Below, in pieces: positions 1-8,626 of a DNA stretch of 8,626 nt (the stretch's first letter is position 1; each line of letters starts with the position of its first letter). A program made the position numbers and the translations under genes. Under the pieces are notes generated by a model. It had not been told where the DNA came from. It was given only the letters and a program-made list of their open reading frames with translations, and searched no databases. Source of the DNA: a virus (Duplodnaviria; Heunggongvirae; Uroviricota; Caudoviricetes); the IMG/VR virus record IMGVR_UViG_2698536618_000012, positions 1-8,626 of that record, one strand, 5' to 3'.

Positions 1-303
1 GAGGATGACCCTCGTAATCAGGTTAATTTTCTTTATGAGCCATCGGAAAGACCATATTGTCATCACGCCTCTGTTCGGGTTGACGAAAAAGAGCGTCAGG
101 TCCGCTGTAAAATCTGCGGTGCAGTTGTGGAGCCATTTGACTGGATGCTCTCTGTGGCGAAAAGAGAAACCAGACTGGCAGATGATGTAAGGCACTTGCG
201 CCAGGAGGAGCGGGAAAGGCGAAAAAATATAGAAAAGCTAATTCAGATTGAGCGTAACGCGAAAGCGCGGATACGCAGGGCGACAAAATCCAGAACTGAA
301 TAA
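1..303 (+). CDS. 3' part of a hypothetical phage protein (5' end outside window); Cys/His zinc-ribbon-like motif followed by a charged, coiled-coil-like tail
   Basis: Frame 1 is open from base 1 to TAA at 301-303 (100 codons). Translation ...YCHHASVRVDEKERQVRCKICGAVVEPFDW...RHLRQEEREGRKNIEKLIQIERNAKARIRRA is protein-like. The overlapping track ORFs 5..190(+) and 23..355(-) look less protein-like. No family recognised. Confidence 0.45.
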   Translation, partial: EDDPRNQVNFLYEPSERPYCHHASVRVDEKERQVRCKICGAVVEPFDWMLSVAKRETRLADDVRHLRQEERERRKNIEKLIQIERNAKARIRRATKSRTE

Positions 304-396
304 TTAAATTTAGCTCTGTTAAAAATTTAATCCTTAACCGGAGGGATTTCTGCACCCTCAGAACATCAGGAGGCCGCCCGAAAGGGCGGTAGTTAA

Positions 397-579
397 ATGC
401 GAAAGTTTAAAATAATTATTGAAACGGGAATAGCCGGTGGAGATTTCGAGGATGAATTCGAAGTGGATGATGATGCGACGCCTGATGAAATACATGACGA
501 AGCAAAAGATATTTTCTTTAACTACTGCAATTACTCATATCACGAAATAAAAGACGAAGAGGAAGAGCAAAATGGCTGA
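397..579 (+). CDS. hypothetical small acidic protein (60 aa)
   Basis: ORF from the track; ATG at 397 follows an in-frame stop. Its stop overlaps the start of the next ORF (ATG 572 / TGA 577-579). Very acidic composition typical of small nin-region phage ORFs. Confidence 0.45.
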   Translation: MRKFKIIIETGIAGGDFEDEFEVDDDATPDEIHDEAKDIFFNYCNYSYHEIKDEEEEQNG

Positions 580-748
580 TTTTGGTTCAACTAAATACAA
601 CGTCAGTTTTGAAGCATGGCATGAACTGTTAATGGACTATGCAGAGTTACGTGGTGGCAGTGCTGCTGATGCTGAAGCATGGCGTGATGATTATGAAGCA
701 GGAAAAACTCCGGTCGAAGCATATTGTGATGAGTGGGGCGATGAATGA
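572..748 (+). CDS. hypothetical small acidic protein (58 aa), translationally coupled on both sides
   Basis: Own translation: MADFGSTKYNVSFEAWHELLMDYAELRGGSAADAEAWRDDYEAGKTPVEAYCDEWGDE. Its stop TGA 746-748 overlaps ATG 745 of the next ORF (ATGA). Absent from the track only because it is under 60 aa. Confidence 0.4.
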   Translation: MADFGSTKYNVSFEAWHELLMDYAELRGGSAADAEAWRDDYEAGKTPVEAYCDEWGDE

Positions 749-1260
749 GCGAGATTAATTATCAGGAAGGGCATGAAACGGCAGGGCAGGCAAAACCAGT
801 TGCATGGCGATATCGCTACGTGAAAAAAGACGTTACAGACTTTCAGGGGAAGCCGTGGGCTGGTGACTGGAAATATGTACCGACAAAAGAGGATTGTAAC
901 GACAGGCCGAACTATGAAATTCAGGCCTTATTCATCGGCCCGCCAGTCCCGGTGACATCAGAAGGACTGGTTAAAGCCGTGCGCTTTTATGAACAGGTAA
1001 AGCGTGAGAATCCGCCAGTCGAAACAGGAGCATGGAAGGATGCTGTTGACTGGGTGCTCAGAGAGGCCTGCTGCGCTGCCATTCTGGGTAAAGCCGACAA
1101 TCCACCAGCATCCGGCAATCAGGTTAGCGAATTAACAATGTGGGTTAAACGACTGGTCAGTCAACTGAAAAAAGCGCAGCCGGACTGCAAATTACCGGAG
1201 AAGGCGATGGATTACCTGAAACGAAATGGACTGATAAGCGTGGAGGATGTTTTACGATGA
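745..1260 (+). CDS. hypothetical phage protein (171 aa)
   Basis: Long ORF with ATGA start/stop coupling to the upstream ORF; no recognisable family motif. Confidence 0.55.
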   Translation: MSEINYQEGHETAGQAKPVAWRYRYVKKDVTDFQGKPWAGDWKYVPTKEDCNDRPNYEIQALFIGPPVPVTSEGLVKAVRFYEQVKRENPPVETGAWKDAVDWVLREACCAAILGKADNPPASGNQVSELTMWVKRLVSQLKKAQPDCKLPEKAMDYLKRNGLISVEDVLR

Positions 1261-1380
1261 ATATTTAGACTAAAGAATTTGTAACGCTATGTAAGTGATT
1301 TTTTCTGGTTTAGATATTTATATGTCCGGCCAAATTGAGGTGTGTTTAAATGTTATTGCACATTGATTGTAGGGGGAATA

Positions 1381-1560
1381 ATGAAAAACGCATTGCAGTT
1401 TTTGTTTGTTGCGTTCTGGTTGTTCGCATCATGTATGCCCATCATCTTCACAGCAAGGTATATGGAAAAAATTGATGTTTTGATATTAATGTTTGGACAT
1501 ATAAATGCCCTTTTTTTAGGGGTGTTCATGGCGGTCATGTGCATTGAATACTGGCGGTAA
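1381..1560 (+). CDS. hypothetical small membrane protein (59 aa) in an AT-rich segment
   Basis: ATG at 1381 preceded by SD-like GGGGG (1372-1376). Translation MKNALQFLFVAFWLFASCMPIIFTARYMEKIDVLILMFGHINALFLGVFMAVMCIEYWR has two hydrophobic segments. AT-richness also allows spurious ORFs here. Confidence 0.35.
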   Translation: MKNALQFLFVAFWLFASCMPIIFTARYMEKIDVLILMFGHINALFLGVFMAVMCIEYWR

Positions 1561-1614
1561 ATACAGCGAACGCCATTGGTTTAGTTGGATATTTACTGTG
1601 CCGGACAAAAACGG

Positions 1615-1643
1615 TTTGCGGGGAAATCTTAGTTAAGTAGAAT
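1615..1643 (+). promoter_or_regulatory. candidate sigma70 promoter for the hok mRNA (-35 TTTGCG, 17-nt spacer, -10 TAGAAT 1638-1643)
   Basis: The -10 hexamer is a good match and the -35 is weak. The predicted start near 1650 puts the 9-nt box TGCGGGTGC (1647-1655) at the 5' end of the transcript, and this box is complementary to 2031-2039 near the 3' end. Confidence 0.3.
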
Positions 1644-1818
1644 AACTGCGGGTGCTTGAGGCTATCTGTCTCAGGCATGAACACCAAAAGGCAGATAGAG
1701 AAAAGCCCCAGTTAACATTACGCGTCCTGCAAGACGCTTAACATTAATCTGAGGCCATATCTATGCGACACATAGAGATTAGCCTCTTACGGACCGAAAG
1801 GTCAAGGAGAAGCAGGCT

Positions 1819-1974
1819 ATGAAGCAGCAAAAGGCGATGTTAATCGCCCTGATCGTCATCTGTTTAACCGTCATAGTGACGGCACTGGTAACGAGGAAAG
1901 ACCTCTGCGAGGTACGAATCCGAACCGGCCAGACGGAGGTCGCTGTCTTCACAGCTTACGAACCTGAGGAGTAA
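1819..1974 (+). CDS. hokD: Hok/Gef-family type I toxin (51 aa)
   Basis: Own translation MKQQKAMLIALIVICLTVIVTALVTRKDLCEVRIRTGQTEVAVFTAYEPEE matches the Hok/Gef family signature (single TM helix then TRKDLCEV..R..GQTEVAVF.AYE); to my recollection it matches HokD (RelF) of the E. coli Qin prophage. Confidence 0.88.
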   Translation: MKQQKAMLIALIVICLTVIVTALVTRKDLCEVRIRTGQTEVAVFTAYEPEE

Positions 1975-1981
1975 GAGACCC

Positions 1982-2003
1982 GGCGAGGGAGAAATCCCTC
2001 GCC
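1982..2003 (+). other. perfect 9-bp stem with GAAA tetraloop immediately 3' of hok (GGCGAGGGA-gaaa-TCCCTCGCC)
   Basis: Read directly from the sequence. It sits where hok mRNAs carry their 3' fold-back (fbi) structures. Confidence 0.6.
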
Positions 2004-2042
2004 ACCTCTGATGTGGCAGGCATTCTCAACGCACCCGCACTT

Positions 2043-2070
2043 AACCCGCTTCGGCGGGTTTTTGTTTTTA
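2043..2070 (+). terminator. intrinsic terminator of the hok transcript
   Basis: AACCCGC-ttcg-GCGGGTT: 7-bp stem with UUCG loop, followed by TTTTTGTTTTTATTTT. Confidence 0.75.
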
Positions 2071-2082
2071 TTTTCAACGCAT

Positions 2083-2112
2083 TTGAAGTTCTGGACGGTG
2101 CCGGAATAGAAT
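2083..2112 (+). promoter_or_regulatory. candidate sigma70 promoter upstream of the rem-like gene (-35 TTGAAG 2083-2088, 18-nt spacer, -10 TAGAAT 2107-2112)
   Basis: Hexamers read by eye; lies just downstream of the hok terminator. Confidence 0.3.
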
Positions 2113-2190
2113 CAAAAATACTTAAGTAGCGCGCAGGGATAAGAGGGATGGTCCCTTAAAGGGGAGAGCTAATTATCCGGAAGGATTCTG

Positions 2191-2442
2191 ATGATGAACA
2201 TCGAAGAACTGCGTAAAATTTTTTGTGAAGATGGCCTCTATGCTGTGTGCGTTGAAAATGGAAATATTGTTAGTCATTACCGCATTGTGTGTTTGCAAAA
2301 AAATGGGGCTGCGTTAATTAATTTTGTGGATGCCCGAGTGACGGACGGATTTATCTTGCGCGACGGTGAGTTTGTCACTTCATTACAGGTATTGAAAGAG
2401 ATCGGAATAAAAGCTGGCTTTTCTGCTTTTTCAGAAGAATAA
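2191..2442 (+). CDS. rem: small hypothetical prophage protein (83 aa), Rem-like by size and position
   Basis: ORF with SD-like GGAAGGA upstream. Symbol is assigned by recalled synteny only (hokD - rem - ydfU in K-12 Qin, rem being 83 aa), not by sequence comparison. Confidence 0.5.
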   Translation: MMNIEELRKIFCEDGLYAVCVENGNIVSHYRIVCLQKNGAALINFVDARVTDGFILRDGEFVTSLQVLKEIGIKAGFSAFSEE

Positions 2443-2508
2443 ACTCATCTACAATCTTGCGCGGGGCTGAACTCCCGCTGAGTAACACCGTGCCACCGGA
2501 GAAAACCG

Positions 2509-2787
2509 ATGGCACGCAACGCAAAATATTACAAACATGATAATTCGACCGTTCTTGCCCACACGCACGAGCGGTATTCTCACGCATTTAAGTCAGACTG
2601 GTACCAGCATCCCCCATGCACTGAAGAACAGGCCGAATGGCTCATTCAGTGTTACCGCAGGCGCGGATGCGAGGTTAAAAAAGCCCTTAGCCTCGACTAC
2701 CGTCACTGGATAATCTCCGTCAGGCTTCCTTACTCCGAACACCCACCGCGTCCGTCCCGCACATTCCAGCAACGCATCTGGAGGTAA
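2509..2787 (+). CDS. hypothetical Cys/His-rich small protein (92 aa), possibly metal-binding
   Basis: GGAG 9 nt upstream of ATG 2509; its stop abuts the next gene's SD and start. Contains H..H...C..C..C. May correspond to the DUF1364-type small proteins of nin regions, but that is unverified. Confidence 0.5.
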   Translation: MARNAKYYKHDNSTVLAHTHERYSHAFKSDWYQHPPCTEEQAEWLIQCYRRRGCEVKKALSLDYRHWIISVRLPYSEHPPRPSRTFQQRIWR

Positions 2788-2788
2788 C

Positions 2789-3838
2789 GTGCGGGTATTA
2801 CTTCGACCTGTTCTGGTACCGGAACTCGGGCTGGTGATCGTTAAGCCGGGCCGTGAATCCATGCCGGTATTCCACAATACCCGGGTACTGGTGGAGCCGG
2901 AACCGAAAAGCATGCGTAATCTGCCGTCCGGGGTCGTTCCTGCCGTTCGCCAGCCGCTGGCGGAGGATAAATCATTACTGCCATTTTTCAGCGACGAACG
3001 AGTGATTCGTGCTGCTGGTGGCGCTGGCGCATTGTCTGACTGGTTACTGCGCCATGTTAAATCCTGCCAGTGGCCACACGGCGATTATCACCACAGTGAA
3101 ACCGTCATTCACCGTTATGGTACCGGCGCAATGGTGTTGTGCTGGCACTGCGACAACCAGTTGCGTGATCAGACCTCCGAATCACTTGAGCAACTTGCTC
3201 ACCGAAACTTGTCAGCATGGATGATTGACGTCATTCGTCACGCAATGAATGGCACACAGGAGCGTGAATTATCGCTGGCTGAATTATCCTGGTGGGCGGC
3301 CTGCAATCAGGTGGTGGATGCACTACCTGAGGCAGTAGCGCGTCGTTCGCTGGGATTACCAGCGGAAAAAATCCGCTCCGTATACCGTGAGAGTGACATC
3401 GTACCGGGAGAACAGACAGCCATCAGCATACTGAAGCAGCGCACAAAAAATATTGCGCTGCCACTTCACGTCCACCAGCAACAAAATCCACCACAGAAAA
3501 AAACGGTTGTCAGTATCGCCGTTGATCCGGAGTCTCCTGAATCGTTCATGAGGCGACCTAAACGTTGCCGTTGGGTTAATGAGAAATACACGCGCTGGGT
3601 AAAGACACAGCCGTGTGCGTGTTGTGGTAAGCCTGCTGACGATCCGCATCACCTGATTGGTCATGGTCAGGGGGGAATGGGGACAAAGGCCCACGATATT
3701 TTCACGCTACCGTTGTGCCGGGAGCACCACAACGAACTTCATGCAGACCCGCTGGAGTTTGAGAAAAAGTACGGCTCTCAGATTGAGTTAATTTTTCGTT
3801 TTCTTGATCACGCCTTTGCAACTGGCGTGCTTGGGTAA
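2789..3838 (+). CDS. ydfU: DUF968/YdfU-like prophage protein (349 aa) with a C-terminal HNH-like Cys/His motif (putative nuclease)
   Basis: GTG start 2789 with GGAGG 4 nt upstream. C-terminal PCACCGKPADDPHHLIGHGQGG...LPLCREHHNELH is HNH/zinc-finger-like; a second Cys/His cluster is CQWPHGDYHH...CWHCDNQ. Length and position upstream of rusA fit the YdfU/DUF968 family as I recall it. Confidence 0.75.
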   Translation: MRVLLRPVLVPELGLVIVKPGRESMPVFHNTRVLVEPEPKSMRNLPSGVVPAVRQPLAEDKSLLPFFSDERVIRAAGGAGALSDWLLRHVKSCQWPHGDYHHSETVIHRYGTGAMVLCWHCDNQLRDQTSESLEQLAHRNLSAWMIDVIRHAMNGTQERELSLAELSWWAACNQVVDALPEAVARRSLGLPAEKIRSVYRESDIVPGEQTAISILKQRTKNIALPLHVHQQQNPPQKKTVVSIAVDPESPESFMRRPKRCRWVNEKYTRWVKTQPCACCGKPADDPHHLIGHGQGGMGTKAHDIFTLPLCREHHNELHADPLEFEKKYGSQIELIFRFLDHAFATGVLG

Positions 3839-3850
3839 AAGAGGTGACTG

Positions 3851-4210
3851 ATGCTCATAGATTTGGTTTTACCTTACCCGCCGACGGTGAACACTTACTG
3901 GCGACGCCGTGGCAGCACATATTTTATCTCGGAGGAGGGAAAGCGTTATCGCCGGGCTGTGGCGCTTATTGTTCGCCAGCAGCGGCTGAAATTAAGCCTG
4001 TCCGGAAGGCTGGCGATAAAGGTGATTGCAGAGCCACCGGATAAGCGTCGTCGCGACCTGGACAACATTCTGAAAGCACCGCTGGATGCGCTGACGCATG
4101 CGGGAGTGCTCATTGATGATGAGCAGTTTGATGAAATCAATATTGTACGTGGTCAGCCAGTATCTGGTGGACGGCTGGGTGTGAAGATTTACAAAATTGA
4201 GAGTGAGTGA
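3851..4210 (+). CDS. rusA: RusA-family Holliday junction resolvase (crossover junction endodeoxyribonuclease)
   Basis: 119 aa with SD AGAGG 7 nt upstream. Translation carries the RusA hallmarks (N-terminal LPYPPTVNTYWRRRG, catalytic-region RRRDLDN, C-terminal GG.L...I) and aligns by eye with E. coli RusA. Confidence 0.9.
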   Translation: MLIDLVLPYPPTVNTYWRRRGSTYFISEEGKRYRRAVALIVRQQRLKLSLSGRLAIKVIAEPPDKRRRDLDNILKAPLDALTHAGVLIDDEQFDEINIVRGQPVSGGRLGVKIYKIESE

Positions 4211-4218
4211 GCGTAAAT

Positions 4219-4749
4219 ATGATATATCCGGAAATTACAGGCAAAAGCGGCGAACATTTACGCCTGAACACGCTGGAAGCAGTCTGGATCCAGGGGAAAT
4301 TACGGATGTGGGGGCGGTGGTCGTATATCGGTGGGGGTAAATCCGGAAATATGTTTAACCGGTTACTGGTTTCGAAAAAGCTGACGAAAACAGCAGTTAA
4401 TGAGGTTTTACGCAGAATGAAGAAATCCGGGCTGGAAAAACCGGAACTTGAGGCATTTTTTCGGGATATGACAAGAGGAAAGCAGAAGAGCTGGTTGTCA
4501 CATTGTACAGACACAGAGGCGTTGATTATTGATCGCGTTATCAGTGAGGTGCTTGGGGAATATCCCGGGCTAATCAATATTCTCCGGCAAAGGTACGAAG
4601 GACGGGGAATGAGTAAGAGAAAAATGGCAGAATGTTTAAATCGTACTCACCCGGAATGGTGTTTCAGCACATGTGAGAAACGTATTGCAGGTTGGTTAGC
4701 CGTGGCTGAACACATGCTTTATGTACCTATGCACGATTCATTTCGATAA
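4219..4749 (+). CDS. putative late-gene antiterminator (Q-like) protein, 176 aa; functional assignment is positional
   Basis: ORF immediately downstream of rusA (the canonical Q position in lambdoid phages) and followed by a hairpin-rich leader and strong intrinsic terminator. ATG 4219 is preferred over GTG 4207, which overlaps the rusA stop. No Q-family motif could be verified by eye. Confidence 0.55.
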   Translation: MIYPEITGKSGEHLRLNTLEAVWIQGKLRMWGRWSYIGGGKSGNMFNRLLVSKKLTKTAVNEVLRRMKKSGLEKPELEAFFRDMTRGKQKSWLSHCTDTEALIIDRVISEVLGEYPGLINILRQRYEGRGMSKRKMAECLNRTHPEWCFSTCEKRIAGWLAVAEHMLYVPMHDSFR

Positions 4750-4845
4750 AAAAAGCTTGCTTTTTTACGCAGAAACAGCTTGAATTCCTGTAAGCTTCGC
4801 AAAGCTGTATCGCGAGGCGAAATGCAAGTTTTTTCGCACAAGGAA

Positions 4846-4867
4846 GCCACCGGAAGGTGGTTTTTTT
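4846..4867 (+). terminator. strong intrinsic terminator after the Q-like gene (tR'-like)
   Basis: GCCACC-ggaa-GGTGG(T) stem followed by TTTTTTT. Preceded by another hairpin, GCGAAA-tgcaagttt-TTTCGC (4817-4837). Confidence 0.75.
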
Positions 4868-4990
4868 GTGTCCGTAATATACAGCAGCGCAATAAATTCG
4901 CTGGTGGTTATTAATACCGTTCTTTCAGCTTGCTGGCTTTTTCGACAAGAGTTATTGGTGTGTCACGTTAACCGGAAAAGGGAAAAAGGC

Positions 4991-5188
4991 ATGCTAAAAC
5001 AGCAGGATATGACCGAAACCGCCAGAGTGGTGTTTAATGAATTAAGCGTCACCGAACCGGCGACCGTCGAGGAAATTGCGCAGAACACTTATCTTTCACG
5101 CGAACGCTGCCAGTTAATACTGACCCAGCTTGTTATGGCGGGTCTGGCAGATTATCAGTTCGGTTGTTACAGACGCCTTCCTCAGTGA
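4991..5188 (+). CDS. small winged-helix DNA-binding protein (65 aa), PapI/FaeA-like or controller-like regulator
   Basis: Internal ATG of track ORF 4868..5188 with SD AAGGGAAAAAGG. TVEEIAQNTYLSRERCQLILTQLVMAGLADYQFGCYRRL has a helix-turn-helix-wing pattern. The GTG-extended N-terminus (4868-4990) looks non-coding. Confidence 0.5.
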   Translation: MLKQQDMTETARVVFNELSVTEPATVEEIAQNTYLSRERCQLILTQLVMAGLADYQFGCYRRLPQ

Positions 5189-5198
5189 AGGCTTTTTT
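5175..5198 (+). terminator. intrinsic terminator overlapping the stop codon of the wHTH gene
   Basis: GCCTTC-ctcagt-GAAGGC: 6-bp stem followed by TTTTTTATTT. Confidence 0.6.
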
Positions 5199-5338
5199 AT
5201 TTGTGGTAATGGGCGGCTGGTGGGTGTTAGCGGCACCTGCCAGCCATCTGCTCATGCGTTGGGGTCACAAGCAAACCTCAGGCCCATCTGCTTTGCGCAA
5301 AAGCGGTATGAGCCTATCAGAGAAGTGCTTATTGATCT

Positions 5339-6418
5339 ATGGCTAATACTGTAAAAATATCCAGTTGTGAGTTAATCAACGCTGATTGCCTGGAATTTAT
5401 CCAGACCTTACCGGAAAACTCTGTCGATCTGATAGTCACAGACCCGCCATACTTTAAAGTGAAGCCCGAGGGCTGGGATAACCAGTGGAAGGGCGACGAT
5501 GATTACCTGAAGTGGCTGGACCAGTGTCTGGCGCAGTTCTGGCGGGTGCTGAAACCTGCCGGAAGTCTTTACCTGTTCTGTGGCCATCGCCTGGCATCTG
5601 ATATCGAAATCATGATGCGTGAACGCTTCAGTGTGCTGAACCATATTATCTGGGCGAAGCCGTCCGGACGCTGGAACGGATGCAACAAGGAAAGCCTGCG
5701 GGCGTATTTCCCCGCCACAGAGCGCATTCTGTTCGCGGAACATTATCAGGGGCCGTATCGTCCGAAAGATGCCGGGTATGCGGCGAAGGGCAGTGCACTG
5801 AAACAGCATGTGATGGCCCCGCTGATTTCTTACTTTCGTGATGCGCGTGCTGCTCTGGGGATAACGGCAAAACAGATTGCAGATGCCACAGGAAAGAAAA
5901 ACATGGTGTCGCACTGGTTCAGTGCCAGTCAGTGGCAGCTACCGAACGAAAGCGATTATCTGAAATTACAGTCGCTGTTTGCCCGGGTGGCAGAAGAGAA
6001 ACATCAGCGGGGTGAACTGGAAAAGCCACATCACCAACTGGTCAGCACATACAGTGAGCTGAACCGGCAAAACCGGCAATATGCCAGCCTGCTGGAGGAG
6101 TACAAATCTTTGCGGCGTTATTTTTCTGTATCGGCTGCTGTTCCGTATACGGATGTCTGGATGTATAAGCCTGTACAGTATTATCCGGGCAAACACCCCT
6201 GTGAAAAACCGGCAGATATGTTGCGTCAGATAATAGAGGCCAGCAGTCGTCCGGGTGATTTGGTTGCCGACTTTTTTATGGGGTCAGGTTCCACGATAAA
6301 AGCCGCGCTTTCGCTTGGTCGTCGGGCAATAGGCGTTGAGCTTGAGGCTGAACGGTTTGAGCAGACGGTGAGCGAGATAAGAGAAATTCTGACGTGTAAA
6401 GCTGTTGAAAATATATAA
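5339..6418 (+). CDS. orphan beta-class DNA methyltransferase (N6_N4_Mtase family; DPPY motif suggests N6-adenine)
   Basis: 359 aa. Catalytic motif IV DLIVTDPPYF lies near the N-terminus and the AdoMet-binding motif I DFFMGSGST near the C-terminus, with a roughly 200-aa target-recognition region between. This is the beta-class order, and overall architecture resembles YhdJ-like adenine methyltransferases. No restriction endonuclease gene is evident nearby. Confidence 0.9.
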   Translation: MANTVKISSCELINADCLEFIQTLPENSVDLIVTDPPYFKVKPEGWDNQWKGDDDYLKWLDQCLAQFWRVLKPAGSLYLFCGHRLASDIEIMMRERFSVLNHIIWAKPSGRWNGCNKESLRAYFPATERILFAEHYQGPYRPKDAGYAAKGSALKQHVMAPLISYFRDARAALGITAKQIADATGKKNMVSHWFSASQWQLPNESDYLKLQSLFARVAEEKHQRGELEKPHHQLVSTYSELNRQNRQYASLLEEYKSLRRYFSVSAAVPYTDVWMYKPVQYYPGKHPCEKPADMLRQIIEASSRPGDLVADFFMGSGSTIKAALSLGRRAIGVELEAERFEQTVSEIREILTCKAVENI

Positions 6419-6480
6419 GTATGGGGTGTAAAGTTGTTCTCGAAAATAATCATGTTTTCTCACGAATCAGAGGGGGGATA

Positions 6481-6741
6481 ATGATTGAGGTTCGATGGAC
6501 AAGGACAGCCCTGAAGCAGTTACTTCGTGTGGATACGCGGTATCGGCAGGCGATAAAGGATAAGGTCGGTGCGCTAAAGGATTTTCCTCTGGTAGCCATG
6601 GATTTTAAAAAGCTATCAGGGAGTGACAATCGATTCCGTTTGAGGGTCGGCGTGTACAGGGTTATTTTTGATGTTGAGGATGGTGATCCTGTTGTCCTGG
6701 ATATTAAGGAAATTAAGCGCAGAAGCACAACCACATACTAA
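6481..6741 (+). CDS. type II toxin, RelE/ParE superfamily (toxin-first, HigB-like gene order)
   Basis: ATG 6481 with strong SD GAGGGGGG 5 nt upstream. The 86-aa product has the RelE/ParE pattern (..RFRLRVGVYRVIFDVEDGDPVVLDIKEIKRR...Y). The track ORF start at 6421 is probably an over-extension. Confidence 0.8.
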   Translation: MIEVRWTRTALKQLLRVDTRYRQAIKDKVGALKDFPLVAMDFKKLSGSDNRFRLRVGVYRVIFDVEDGDPVVLDIKEIKRRSTTTY

Positions 6742-6801
6742 GGGAGGCTGGCGGGAGACCGCCAGTTTGCTGAACGACATTCAATCGCGAAAGGCAATGA
6801 T

Positions 6802-7176
6802 ATGAAAAACAGTGTCCAGTTTATTACTGATAATGCCGGTGTTAGAACCGGGGTCATTATGTCAGTTGCTGAATATGAACGGCTGTTAAGTCTGGCAGAT
6901 CCTGATGATGATTTTGAAAGCATCCAGTATGAAGCCGGAGAGCATGACAATGAAACAATACCTCATGAAGTAGTATCCATCATGATTGATGATGATGTGT
7001 CATTGTTGGCAGCATGGCGGATTTACAGGCGAATGACTCAACAGGAAGTGGCGGAGCGCCTGGGGGTTAAACAGTCAGCCGTATCTCAGTTTGAGAGAGC
7101 AGGAGCTCCGCGAAAATCAACACTGGAAAAACTGGCTGAGATTTACAACTGCCGACCAAATCAGTTGGCTGATTAA
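6802..7176 (+). CDS. antitoxin with N-terminal Phd/YefM-like segment and C-terminal XRE-type HTH (124 aa)
   Basis: AAGG 7 nt upstream of ATG. N-terminus NAGVRTGVIMSVAEYERLLSL resembles the YefM/Phd motif; C-terminus LLAAWRIYRRMTQQEVAERLGVKQSAVSQFERAG...LEKLAEIY is a classic HTH_XRE. Lies directly downstream of the toxin. Confidence 0.8.
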   Translation: MKNSVQFITDNAGVRTGVIMSVAEYERLLSLADPDDDFESIQYEAGEHDNETIPHEVVSIMIDDDVSLLAAWRIYRRMTQQEVAERLGVKQSAVSQFERAGAPRKSTLEKLAEIYNCRPNQLAD

Positions 7177-7321
7177 TCCTGAGTTTGGTTTTCGTAGCGA
7201 TTGCATTTTTCTTATCTGCTTGCCGTTGTAGGTAGCGTGTATTTGCATGTTGTTTTGTAGTTAACCTTATGGTTGGCTGAATTTTGTTCATCAATAAAAA
7301 ATATCCCTCTCTGATCTTTAA

Positions 7322-7346
7322 GGTTCGCTTTGGCGGACCTTTTTTT
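7322..7346 (+). terminator. intrinsic terminator downstream of the toxin-antitoxin pair
   Basis: GGTTCGC-tttg-GCGGACC: 7-bp stem including one G-U pair, followed by TTTTTTT. Confidence 0.7.
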
Positions 7347-7482
7347 ATTTCCGCGCCACGCCCGGCGTACATCAAAAACCACAGAGCCTTTCAGGGGTGA
7401 GCTTACGGGATGGTCAGTGTGACTTTCTCTGTGGGCTGGTCACCCCCGGGCGCAGGCTCACCCACTAAAAGGAAAAGTCACG

Positions 7483-7914
7483 ATGTTTGGTATTTTCAAA
7501 AAGAAAACCCGCAGAGCAGCAACTGAAATTAAAAAGTTTGAGAAACGCGATCTGGCACAGGCGGTTATTAATGCTGCCTACCTGGTGGCCTATGCAGATG
7601 GTGAATGTGAGACTTCAGAGAAAGTGAAGATCGAACAGGTATTACGTAACCAGCCAGCATTGTCCGCATTTACGTCAGAAATTAATGCCATCAGTGCCAC
7701 GATCACAGGTCAGCTTGACACCAATTTTAAAATTGGTCGTCGTGCAGCGTTGCGTGAAATTGAAGATGTGAAACACGATACGCGTGAAGCGGAAGATGTG
7801 CTGGATGTGGCGGTGGCCATTGCTGAAGCAGATGGTGAAATTGAGCCGGAAGAGCGTAAGGTTCTGGAAGAGATTGCTGGTGTTCTTGGCCTGCGACTGG
7901 AGAACCACCTGTGA
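7483..7914 (+). CDS. TerB-domain protein (tellurite-resistance TerB-like, 143 aa)
   Basis: SD AAGGA 8 nt upstream. Two copies of the TerB-type helical motif (hydrophobic-x-A-x-A-D-G-x-acidic...E-K/R): AAYLVAYADGECETSEKVKIEQVL and DVAVAIAEADGEIEPEERKVLEEIAGVLGL. Confidence 0.7.
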   Translation: MFGIFKKKTRRAATEIKKFEKRDLAQAVINAAYLVAYADGECETSEKVKIEQVLRNQPALSAFTSEINAISATITGQLDTNFKIGRRAALREIEDVKHDTREAEDVLDVAVAIAEADGEIEPEERKVLEEIAGVLGLRLENHL

Positions 7915-8078
7915 CGGTAAAACTGCGTCTGGCCGCTGTGGCACTCCTGCTGTTTCTGGTGGTGATGGTGGATTTCACCAGCAGGATCATGTCGGTGCTG
8001 GCGGATGGAGTGCTGGTCTGCGGCATTGTGGTATTGCTGTGGCCGGTGATAAAAAGAAACAGCCTGCATAATGCTTGA
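7911..8078 (+). CDS. small two-helix membrane peptide (55 aa), translationally coupled to the TerB-like gene
   Basis: GTG 7911 overlaps the TerB stop (GTGA); GGAGAA sits 6 nt upstream. Own translation VTVKLRLAAVALLLFLVVMVDFTSRIMSVLADGVLVCGIVVLLWPVIKRNSLHNA shows two hydrophobic stretches. Not in the track (under 60 aa); an alternative start at ATG 7965 would give 37 aa. Confidence 0.45.
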   Translation: MTVKLRLAAVALLLFLVVMVDFTSRIMSVLADGVLVCGIVVLLWPVIKRNSLHNA

Positions 8079-8243
8079 TTTTTTTGTTTGCTGTTTATTA
8101 AAAACACTTCTGCATGGTGAATCCCCCTGTGCGGTGGGGCAATCAGCAAGAAGGAATATGGGGTAATCGCGGATTCAGGTGCTGATACTGAATTCACCGG
8201 GAGGCACCCGGCACCATGCAAGAAAAAGAATGTGCATGCAAAC

Positions 8244-8271
8244 ATGCCCCTCTCCGGAGGGGCATTTTTTA
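8244..8271 (+). terminator. strong intrinsic terminator (9-bp stem ATGCCCCTC-tccg-GAGGGGCAT followed by TTTTTT)
   Basis: Read directly from the sequence. An adjacent hairpin GCCCGAA-tggg-TTCGGGC (8284-8301), preceded by AAAAAA, would act as a terminator for the opposite strand, so the pair may be bidirectional. Confidence 0.7.
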
Positions 8272-8363
8272 TGGGTAAAAAATGCCCGAATGGGTTCGGG
8301 CAATAGCATGAGATACTGATATTGTTGTGTTGTTATCGTGTGGATTTTAACCAGGGTTTATCA

Positions 8364-8389
8364 GGCTGCGCAACTGCGTGGCCTTTTTT
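8364..8389 (+). terminator. candidate intrinsic terminator (8-bp stem with two G-U pairs, loop AACT, followed by TTTTTT)
   Basis: GGCTGCGC-aact-GCGTGGCC followed by TTTTTTC; a second terminator only about 95 nt after the previous one. Confidence 0.5.
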
Positions 8390-8396
8390 CATTTCT

Positions 8397-8443
8397 TGGG
8401 CTGTAGTCCCCGTGTGTCATTCAGGCTTCCGGACTACAGCCCA
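8397..8443. repeat. 13-bp perfect inverted repeat with 21-nt spacer (TGGGCTGTAGTCC ... GGACTACAGCCCA)
   Basis: Read directly from the sequence; lies about 45 nt upstream of the ATG at 8486. Confidence 0.7.
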
Positions 8444-8485
8444 CTCCATATCTGATTTAATACACTATCCCGGCCGGGAGGAATA

Positions 8486-8626
8486 ATGACATTTAAACAT
8501 TATGATGTTGTCAGGGCGGCGTCGCCGTCAGACCTTGCGGAAAAGCTGACACACAAACTGAAAGAGGGCTGGCAGCCGTTTGGTAGTCCGGTGGCCATAA
8601 CCCCTTATACCCTGATGCAGGCGATT
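8486..8626 (+). CDS. 5' part of a hypothetical phage protein (continues beyond the window)
   Basis: ATG 8486 with SD GGGAGG 4 nt upstream; open to the window end. Translation MTFKHYDVVRAASPSDLAEKLTHKLKEGWQPFGSPVAITPYTLMQAI. May be a DUF1737-type small protein found near lysis cassettes, but this is unverified. Confidence 0.6.
   Translation, partial: MTFKHYDVVRAASPSDLAEKLTHKLKEGWQPFGSPVAITPYTLMQAI

Follow-up and report, generated by a model that had tools for sequence, protein, structure and literature searches.

In the HigBA2 toxin-antitoxin (TA) system of Vibrio cholerae, the gene for a RelE-like toxin precedes that for the antitoxin, and the antitoxin is made up of an N-terminal neutralising segment and an HTH (helix-turn-helix) domain at the C-terminus, through which it dimerises and binds DNA (PMC5416850). 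The relE-yiaG systems are also bicistronic and toxin-first, pairing a PF_RelE toxin with an antitoxin that has an N-terminal extension and a C-terminal XRE HTH (PMC11980606). Rts1/Proteus HigBA and E. coli HigBA combine a leading toxin gene with an autorepressing antitoxin of the XRE type. In E. coli and archaeal RelBE (4fxe, 1wmi, 3bpq), RelB is encoded first, binds DNA through an N-terminal ribbon-helix-helix, and neutralises by its C-terminus. Here, we describe a locus that recalls each of these systems, found on the + strand of an 8,626-nucleotide stretch (hereafter the window) that comprises positions 1 to 8,626 of the IMG/VR virus record IMGVR_UViG_2698536618_000012 (Caudoviricetes). With V. 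cholerae HigBA2 it shares the gene order, the fold and active site of the toxin, and the succession of an N-terminal segment and a C-terminal HTH in the antitoxin; with relE-yiaG, the whole bicistronic layout; with HigBA, the toxin-first order and an XRE-type antitoxin that by analogy would act as an autorepressor; and with RelBE, the toxin fold and catalytic constellation, together with an antitoxin that is expected to wrap the toxin. The best overall explanation, to which we assign a probability of about 0.75, is that the locus is an autonomous type II TA module consisting of a RelE-type toxin and a fused PF18506/XRE antitoxin whose N-terminal part neutralises the toxin. The analysis directly supports the gene structure, the family, fold and catalytic set of the toxin, the composite origin of the antitoxin, the gene order, the position of the promoter, and the location in a prophage.

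The toxin, as judged from its sequence and predicted structure, is a RelE-type nuclease and not a ParE. A profile of 39 members searched against the PDB matched RelE proteins only, namely M. jannaschii RelE3 (3bpq, 4e-8), P. horikoshii aRelE (1wmi, 1e-5), and E. coli RelE (EcRelE, 4e-4). The AlphaFold2 (AF2) model (pLDDT 87) has the topology α-α-β-β-β-β of the RelE/BECR fold, and Foldseek places aRelE (1wmi_A; E 5.9e-6, TM 0.76) at the top, followed in order by 3bpq_B, M. tuberculosis RelE2 (3g5o_B), EcRelE (4fxe_E), and M. tuberculosis RelE1, with YoeB, ParE, and HigB ranking lower. In a profile alignment with EcRelE (4v7k), which reaches the terminal tyrosine, the EcRelE residues K54, R61, R81, and Y87 find their counterparts in R53, R60, R80, and the C-terminal Y86, respectively. 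Across the 39 toxin sequences, R53, R60, and R80 are invariant, while R55, Y59, R81, and Y86 are at least 90% conserved. In EcRelE, acid-base catalysis is proposed to rest on the pair R81 and K54, the transition state is stabilised by R61, and Y87 matters for catalysis (PMC5416850); such RelE-type catalytic residues are absent from ParE toxins (PMC11980606). The assignment to the RelE type therefore rests on the structural and profile neighbours together with the conserved equivalents of catalytic residues that ParE toxins lack. Unlike EcRelE, in which Y87 is followed by an extra C-terminal helix, the window toxin has none, and unlike the VcHigBA2 toxin it is short (86 aa), ending at the catalytic residue itself.

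The toxin start lies 5 nt downstream of a Shine-Dalgarno sequence, GAGGGGGG. A longer in-frame open reading frame (ORF) begins at 6421, but the 86-aa start is favoured because RefSeq annotates 86 aa and because the full-length homologues, among the matches listed, are nearly all 84-86 aa, only a few being called longer (89-109 aa). In one Pectobacterium locus (L007), the toxin stop codon is lost and the toxin is extended to 117 aa. The profile search recovered 1756 proteins at E <= 0.001, which among the matches listed belong to Enterobacterales and Pasteurellales. In PHROGs the toxin matches phrog_1213, 'RelE-like toxin' (E 7e-21). Its sole Pfam match, across residues 4-77, is named ParE_toxin (PF05016; 33.2 bits against a cutoff of 23), some sources call it a 'plasmid stabilisation protein', and PHROGs and RefSeq label the antitoxin only as a transcriptional regulator. 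These labels would allow the view that the toxin poisons gyrase as ParE does or is a RelE-fold protein without activity, that the HTH protein is a mere phage transcription factor, and that the locus holds no mRNA-interferase TA pair. We regard this as highly improbable: the PF05016 model takes in both RelE and ParE, the neighbours by structure and profile are RelE proteins, the catalytic equivalents are conserved, and the strict adjacency of the two genes over many contexts (see below) fits a cognate pair. The database annotation of the toxin is correct, while that of the antitoxin is only generic.

The antitoxin, whose ORF shares one reading frame with that of the toxin, matches phrog_7241 end to end (E 2e-50), and it is in its N-terminal part that a separate ancestry can be traced. 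When the profile of residues 1-62 was aligned by hhalign with 20 stand-alone proteins, the match reached 99.3% (E 8.7e-21) over 56 columns (1-57 of 61), and the aligned region takes in the C-terminal 'DEETIPHE' motif of the stand-alone proteins, corresponding to D49 and P54 of the window antitoxin. These two residues, which lie within the motif 'DNETIPHEVV' of residues 1-58, are the sole invariant positions in the N-terminal half of the antitoxin family. The Pfam family PF18506 (RelB-like) is matched at E<=0.01 by 26 of 34 antitoxin family members (best 35.7 bits, E 1.3e-8, against a cutoff of 27), and when eight stand-alone or rearranged proteins were scanned with Pfam, five reached this family's cutoff, P0301 scoring 33.4 bits over profile positions 5-59 of 62. 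By sequence comparison, the 124-aa protein thus joins an entire small RelB-like antitoxin of PF18506 to an XRE domain. Over their full length, residues 1-58 share homology with the stand-alone antitoxins, both in the hairpin-helix pattern VQFITD..G....V.LP..EYE.LL and in the tail motif, and in the one stand-alone locus examined (L015) the partner toxin belongs to the same superfamily. Unlike the window protein, the stand-alone antitoxins (~60-75 aa) carry no XRE domain, and at L015 the antitoxin gene lies upstream and shares 4 bp with the RelE/ParE-type gene behind it, which the toxin profile matches at 94.5%. Relative to this one stand-alone relative, the gene order in the window is inverted.

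An exhaustive HMMER search with the N-terminal profile returned 429 proteins, which after cleaning include many stand-alone proteins of 60-75 aa, tandem duplications, and one module placed after a different HTH. Because the segment is found both alone and in other architectures, it is a shuffled module, in agreement with the preliminary description of this DNA, which had proposed a domain-shuffled antitoxin. Among individual proteins, the hairpin-helix is rearranged in P0234 (140 aa), P0241 (194 aa), and P0314 (156 aa), either as a tandem duplication or C-terminal to a resolvase/sigma-like HTH. Two kinds of match were set aside: giant proteins (P0210, P0243, and others) are Big_3 Ig-repeat proteins whose summed β-hairpin similarity is spurious, and many short matches are frameshifted or truncated copies of the antitoxin family and not separate architectures.

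The C-terminal part of the antitoxin is a generic, phage-repressor-like XRE HTH, with a five-helix XRE fold and an HTH_3 (PF01381) match over residues 72-120 (46.5 bits against a cutoff of 23). It is preceded by an acidic linker, in which 9 of 20 residues (33-52) are acidic. In the AF2 model (pLDDT 87), the region N-terminal to the HTH forms a β-hairpin (6-9, 15-19), a helix (22-31), the linker at lower confidence, and a further helix from P54. The XRE domain and the acidic linker were both recognized beforehand, and the same description had read the N-terminus as YefM/Phd-like; of that proposal the two-part fusion holds, while the Phd/YefM identity does not, PF18506 being the better match. 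The likeness to Phd/YefM is itself reproducible, consisting of a β-hairpin and an 'EYERL' helix. Residues ~8-35 align in one constant register with profile positions ~27-59 of 74 of PhdYeFM_antitox (PF02604), at E<=0.01 in 7 of the 34 members, yet the scores, which span 13.8-26 bits, stay below threshold: 13.8 bits against 29.8 for the window antitoxin (positions 29-55 of 74), at best 20.5 bits among the 34 aligned members, and 13.5 bits against 20.8 (E 0.035) for phd_fam (TIGR01552). The Phd/YefM topology is β1-α1-α2-β2-β3-α3 (PMC11980606), and given the profile positions matched, only the β2-β3-α3 half is represented. Membership of Phd/YefM was rejected, since β1-α1-α2 is missing, the scores are sub-threshold, the AF2 model has only β-β-α before the linker, and the order is toxin-first; the tail and the DNA-binding domain also differ from those of that family.

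Other antitoxin families were considered and set aside. The MqsA model TIGR03830, whose cutoff is 61.8, reaches 20.9 bits and matches nothing but the HTH part, and residues 1-62 contain no cysteines and hence no zinc-binding CxxC. No HigB-type Pfam family and no HigA NCBIfam model is matched. The YiaG model NF007481, on which K-12 YiaG scores 190 bits, is not matched by the window antitoxin, and the hhalign comparison with YiaG (51%) is confined to the HTH; a Yersinia orthologue of the window antitoxin is nevertheless labelled 'YiaG' in some databases. For the YiaG N-terminus two helices are modelled, and the toxins that pair with YiaG begin with long disordered extensions (PMC11980606); the window antitoxin instead has a hairpin and a helix, and its toxin has no extension. 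The N-terminus of VcHigA2 is a disordered segment that folds into a helix and then a strand, unlike the hairpin, helix, acidic linker, and PF18506 descent found here, and no sequence relation to VcHigA2 was detected with either the single sequence or the profile.

The association of the two genes is conserved well beyond the window. The antitoxin family comprises 80 homologous clusters in a large database, and a survey of one genome per species recovered 62 loci. In 46 of these, the antitoxin gene is immediately preceded by a RelE-type gene on the same strand, at a spacing of 23-174 nt, while none of the 62 has a toxin downstream of the antitoxin. Together with the above-cutoff ParE_toxin match and the RelE neighbours, this upholds the earlier view of a toxin-first RelE-family module. 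The contexts are unrelated, ranging from chromosomal islands (Photorhabdus, Pectobacterium, Serratia) to the Q-to-holin slots of Salmonella prophages. The antitoxin family also occurs in Pasteurella and in Klebsiella (3LV2017, Kp48xx), Burkholderia AP3, and Pseudomonas LESphi2 phages, and in the AP3 and LESphi2 records the antitoxin match also overlaps an annotated RelE-like toxin. On this comparative evidence the toxin-antitoxin pair is real and widespread. About 11 of the 62 loci hold full-length orphan antitoxins, and the remaining few are truncated antitoxin genes. The orphans, which have no detectable upstream toxin gene, occur in Haemophilus influenzae (L005/L030), Superficieibacter electus (L010/L011), Photorhabdus/Xenorhabdus (L019, L020, L022, L023, L025, and L026), Buttiauxella (L032), and Pantoea (L072), and several of the genomes that bear them have a second, complete copy of the module elsewhere. 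Orphan antitoxins could act as anti-addiction genes or as plain regulators.

The module is predicted to have its own positionally conserved promoter, and it is closed by its own terminator. A candidate sigma-70 promoter extends over the end of the upstream methylase gene, taking in its last codons and its stop codon (Table 1). In five genera (the window, Salmonella, Photorhabdus, Serratia, and Pectobacterium), the upstream regions align on an invariant TTG (-35) and a TAnnnT (-10) 17-18 nt further on. The spacer of the window promoter contains TATAAGT, a candidate operator half-site, and ATAAG/CTTAT-type inverted repeats occur in the spacer in three of the four other genera (Salmonella, Photorhabdus, Serratia). 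At the other end, a terminator-like hairpin at 7320-7341 (9 bp, -13.4 kcal/mol, z -2.2) is followed by a T-run; the preliminary description gave toxin, antitoxin, and terminator in this order, and the ORFs and the fold confirm its coordinates.

Table 1. Features of the module and of its surroundings in the window (gene coordinates of toxin and antitoxin include the stop codon)
Feature	Position	Strand	Evidence
RelE-type toxin gene, 86 aa	6481..6741	+	Pfam, PHROGs, AF2/Foldseek, profile alignment
Antitoxin gene, 124 aa	6802..7176	+	ORF; phrog_7241; homologous clusters; toxin adjacency
Antitoxin residues 1-58, PF18506 'RelB-like'-equivalent segment	6802..6975	+	hhalign, PF18506 matches, AF2 secondary structure
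Antitoxin residues 66-120, XRE/Cro-C1-type HTH domain, proposed to dimerise and bind the operator	6997..7161	+	
Candidate sigma-70 promoter (-35 TTGAAA, 18 nt, -10 TAAAGT)	6405..6434	+	consensus scan; putative function
GC-rich hairpin (CTGGCGG-GAGA-CCGCCAG, extends to ~10 bp), no U-run	6748..6765	+	perfect inverted repeat
Intrinsic-terminator-like hairpin and T-run closing the module	7320..7351	+	scan; fold
DUF968 ORF	2789-3838		window ORF
RusA ORF	3851-4210		window ORF
DUF1133/Q-type antiterminator (Q)	4207-4749		window ORF
Small ORF, 66 aa	4988-5188		weak winged-helix matches (TrmB, E 7e-4)
N6/N4 DNA methylase ORF	5339-6418		N6_N4_Mtase E 1e-44
TerB-family gene	7483-7914		E 3e-15
Small hydrophobic ORF overlapping the TerB gene	7911-8078		DUF3927 annotation in matching genomes

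Toxicity, neutralisation, the toxin-binding segment, the operator, and the biological role we infer from these features. By analogy with E. coli RelE, the toxin would enter the ribosomal A site and cleave mRNA by means of R80 and R53 as the acid-base pair, R60 at the transition state, and Y86. Residues 1-58 of the antitoxin would wrap the toxin, with the hairpin and the amphipathic helix lying on the toxin β-sheet, and the acidic linker with its D49...P54 motif would cover the arginine-rich active site, so that ribosome entry or catalysis is blocked. The XRE domain would dimerise to give a toxin-antitoxin-antitoxin-toxin (T-A-A-T) complex, as expected by analogy with VcHigBA2, and would repress the promoter at 6405-6434 through the ATAAG-type half-sites.

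Several observations weigh against this reading. On its own, the window antitoxin falls below the Pfam cutoff for PF18506 (14.6 bits against 27; E 0.03), and in the window the putative operator has a degenerate right half. PADLOC has no defence-system model matching the toxin and gives only generic HTH matches for the antitoxin. Inter-protein covariation over 42 unique pairs (effective number of sequences, Neff, 17) shows no enrichment in either half of the antitoxin, the top scores being artefacts of near-invariant columns. The full-length orphans mean that the antitoxin can persist without a toxin. Canonical small antitoxins usually dimerise or bind DNA by an N-terminal β-rich part, and only the C-terminal tail binds the toxin; given this division of labour, the hairpin itself may not contact the toxin.

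A different arrangement of the same TA pair would have the XRE domain bind the toxin, as in Proteus HigA, leaving the hairpin and helix as a second dimerisation or DNA-binding element, a Phd/YefM-like remnant that supports higher-order repressor complexes. Such an arrangement has a precedent in PvHigA, which, unlike what is proposed for the window antitoxin, is without a disordered neutralising segment and binds the toxin through its globular domain (PMC5416850). It would also accommodate the alignment of the hairpin-helix with β2-β3-α3 of the Phd/YefM domain, through which antitoxins of that family bind DNA and dimerise, as well as the prediction that the hairpin-helix is folded without a partner (pLDDT 86-90) and the retention of the N-terminal module in orphan antitoxins. 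However, a segment without β1-α1-α2 cannot form the Phd/YefM core alone, all of residues 1-58 is kept, including the 'ETIPHE' tail motif with D49 and P54, as expected of a toxin-contacting tail, and neutralisation usually takes this form, with an acidic linker set opposite an active site rich in arginine. On balance, we consider toxin binding by the XRE domain unlikely, and favour neutralisation by the N-terminal PF18506-derived part.

The window is lambdoid-prophage DNA from an E. coli prophage, and the module is an optional cargo ('moron') in the slot between Q and the lysis genes. E. coli O39:NM F8704-2 and prophage PPyecE_EH1910 each contain a stretch that matches the 928-bp module region at 100% identity, and the region is present in only 11 of 5426 complete E. 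coli genomes. None of the complete E. coli genomes contains the whole window contiguously, the best coverage being 77%. In the matching records, the region sits between Q/methylase on one side and TerB, DUF3927, a NanS-p-type esterase, and lysis genes on the other. We take this Q-to-lysis position to be the late-region cargo slot occupied by stx in Stx phages. The TerB gene and the DUF3927-type ORF are further cargo between the TA module and the NanS-p esterase. The F8704-2 genome has three copies of the region. The two examined (L001, L080) both belong to the late regions of lambdoid prophages and encode the same toxin (WP_000573777) with slightly different antitoxins (WP_032258101, WP_000798624).

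The methylase gene does end at 6418, directly before the module, as originally described. From this position it had been suggested that the module is co-transcribed with the methylase, possibly as an addiction or defence cassette. In a cassette of all three genes, the HTH protein could be, for example, a C-protein-like controller of the methylase. The comparative context largely refutes this, and we rate it as very unlikely: the module has its own conserved promoter, in Salmonella prophages it follows Q directly and has no adjacent methylase, and no methylase copy lies within 3 kb in 55 of the 62 loci, most chromosomal copies being among those without a nearby methylase. In Xenorhabdus prophages, Q and the methylase are followed by the TA module in opposite orientation, then by lysozyme and Rz, and in Buttiauxella the order is methylase, orphan antitoxin, holin, Nu1. 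In 7 of the 62 loci, the module has a methylase of 59-74% identity close by, a co-occurrence that is explained by a shared Q-to-lysis cargo hot spot. The pattern across these genomes fits methylase and TA module as independent cargo in that hot spot, and not a cassette. The methylase itself matches a 221-position N6_N4_Mtase profile across residues 29-343, which implies an insertion of ~100 aa; in PADLOC it falls under the type II methyltransferases (E 2e-157), and the window contains no restriction partner for it. Its residues 167-195 give a weak HTH_3 match (E 0.034). In a prophage of Xenorhabdus bharatensis (L046, 3448-4203), a Tad2-like (Thoeris anti-defence 2) + DUF7823 gene lies between the TA module and the methylase, from which it follows that the slot gathers both defence-type and anti-defence cargo.

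The conserved position of the promoter, the module's own terminator, the inversion relative to the late operon in Xenorhabdus, and the multiple copies in F8704-2 are the grounds on which we regard the module as autonomous. In a lysogen, it would be transcribed from its own promoter, with transcription stopping at the terminator at 7320-7351, and after induction Q-modified polymerase would also read through it. A strong terminator-like hairpin at 5175-5192 (GCCTTC...GAAGGC followed by the T-run TTTTTTATTT) lies between Q and the methylase, after the 66-aa ORF, and is probably tR', the terminator that Q overrides. Because the module lies downstream of Q and of this site, late-promoter read-through into it after induction is likely in the window.

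A second RNA element lies inside the module. The hairpin at 6748-6765 starts 7 nt after the toxin stop codon, and the toxin-antitoxin spacer folds at -23.3 kcal/mol (z -3.6), with none of 200 shuffles as stable. A comparable post-toxin hairpin (ΔG <= -8 kcal/mol within 40 nt) is found in 27 of the 46 toxin-bearing loci, with arms that vary by genus (CUGGCGG/CCGCCAG, GGCGGG/CCCGCC, AGUGGGGA/UUCCCACU, and GGGCGA/UCGCCC), and a U-run is usually absent. Further examples are L012, L018, L028, L036, L051, L059, L064-L066, and L075, and in some Xenorhabdus loci the hairpin is followed by UUUUU and is attenuator-like. By affecting how the mRNA is processed or how stable it is, the hairpin may set the ratio in which toxin and antitoxin are expressed. 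In a more speculative and unlikely extension, the fusion would have given the antitoxin two separate oligomerisation or DNA-contact units, a Phd/YefM-like hairpin module and the XRE domain, and these and the post-toxin hairpin would together be a distinct solution to the stoichiometry of a toxin-first operon, in which cleavage of the transcript, possibly by RelE, leaves a 5′-protected antitoxin mRNA, and the module might couple induction to a RelE burst. The latter is conceivable because the module lies in the Q-antiterminated late transcript, at the position of stx in Stx phages. If this were true, the module would be a phage-timed host shut-off or anti-superinfection device and not a passive addiction module.

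A literature search on the RefSeq accessions and on PF18506 found no paper on this TA family. The design is not unprecedented and adds no new principle to TA biology; what is new is the origin and shape of the N-terminal part, which is a whole PF18506 antitoxin with a distant likeness to Phd/YefM, together with the minimal toxin. The locus thereby offers a clean, datable example of how an antitoxin is assembled, in which the joining of an entire small antitoxin to a generic repressor domain went along with a flip in gene order, and it parallels the structural case of VcHigBA2 from a different ancestral module. For the prophage, either a role in stabilisation or an abortive-infection-type defence against other phages is plausible, and the module takes its place in the Q-to-lysis slot beside a methylase, TerB, and anti-defence genes. 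Copies can accumulate: Yersinia pestis has two, a single E. coli genome has as many as three, and the three copies in F8704-2 pose questions of cross-neutralisation and of interference between prophages. For the family as a whole, the proteins of phrog_7241, so far labelled 'transcriptional regulator', would be the antitoxins of a RelE module that is widespread in Enterobacterales and Pasteurellales.

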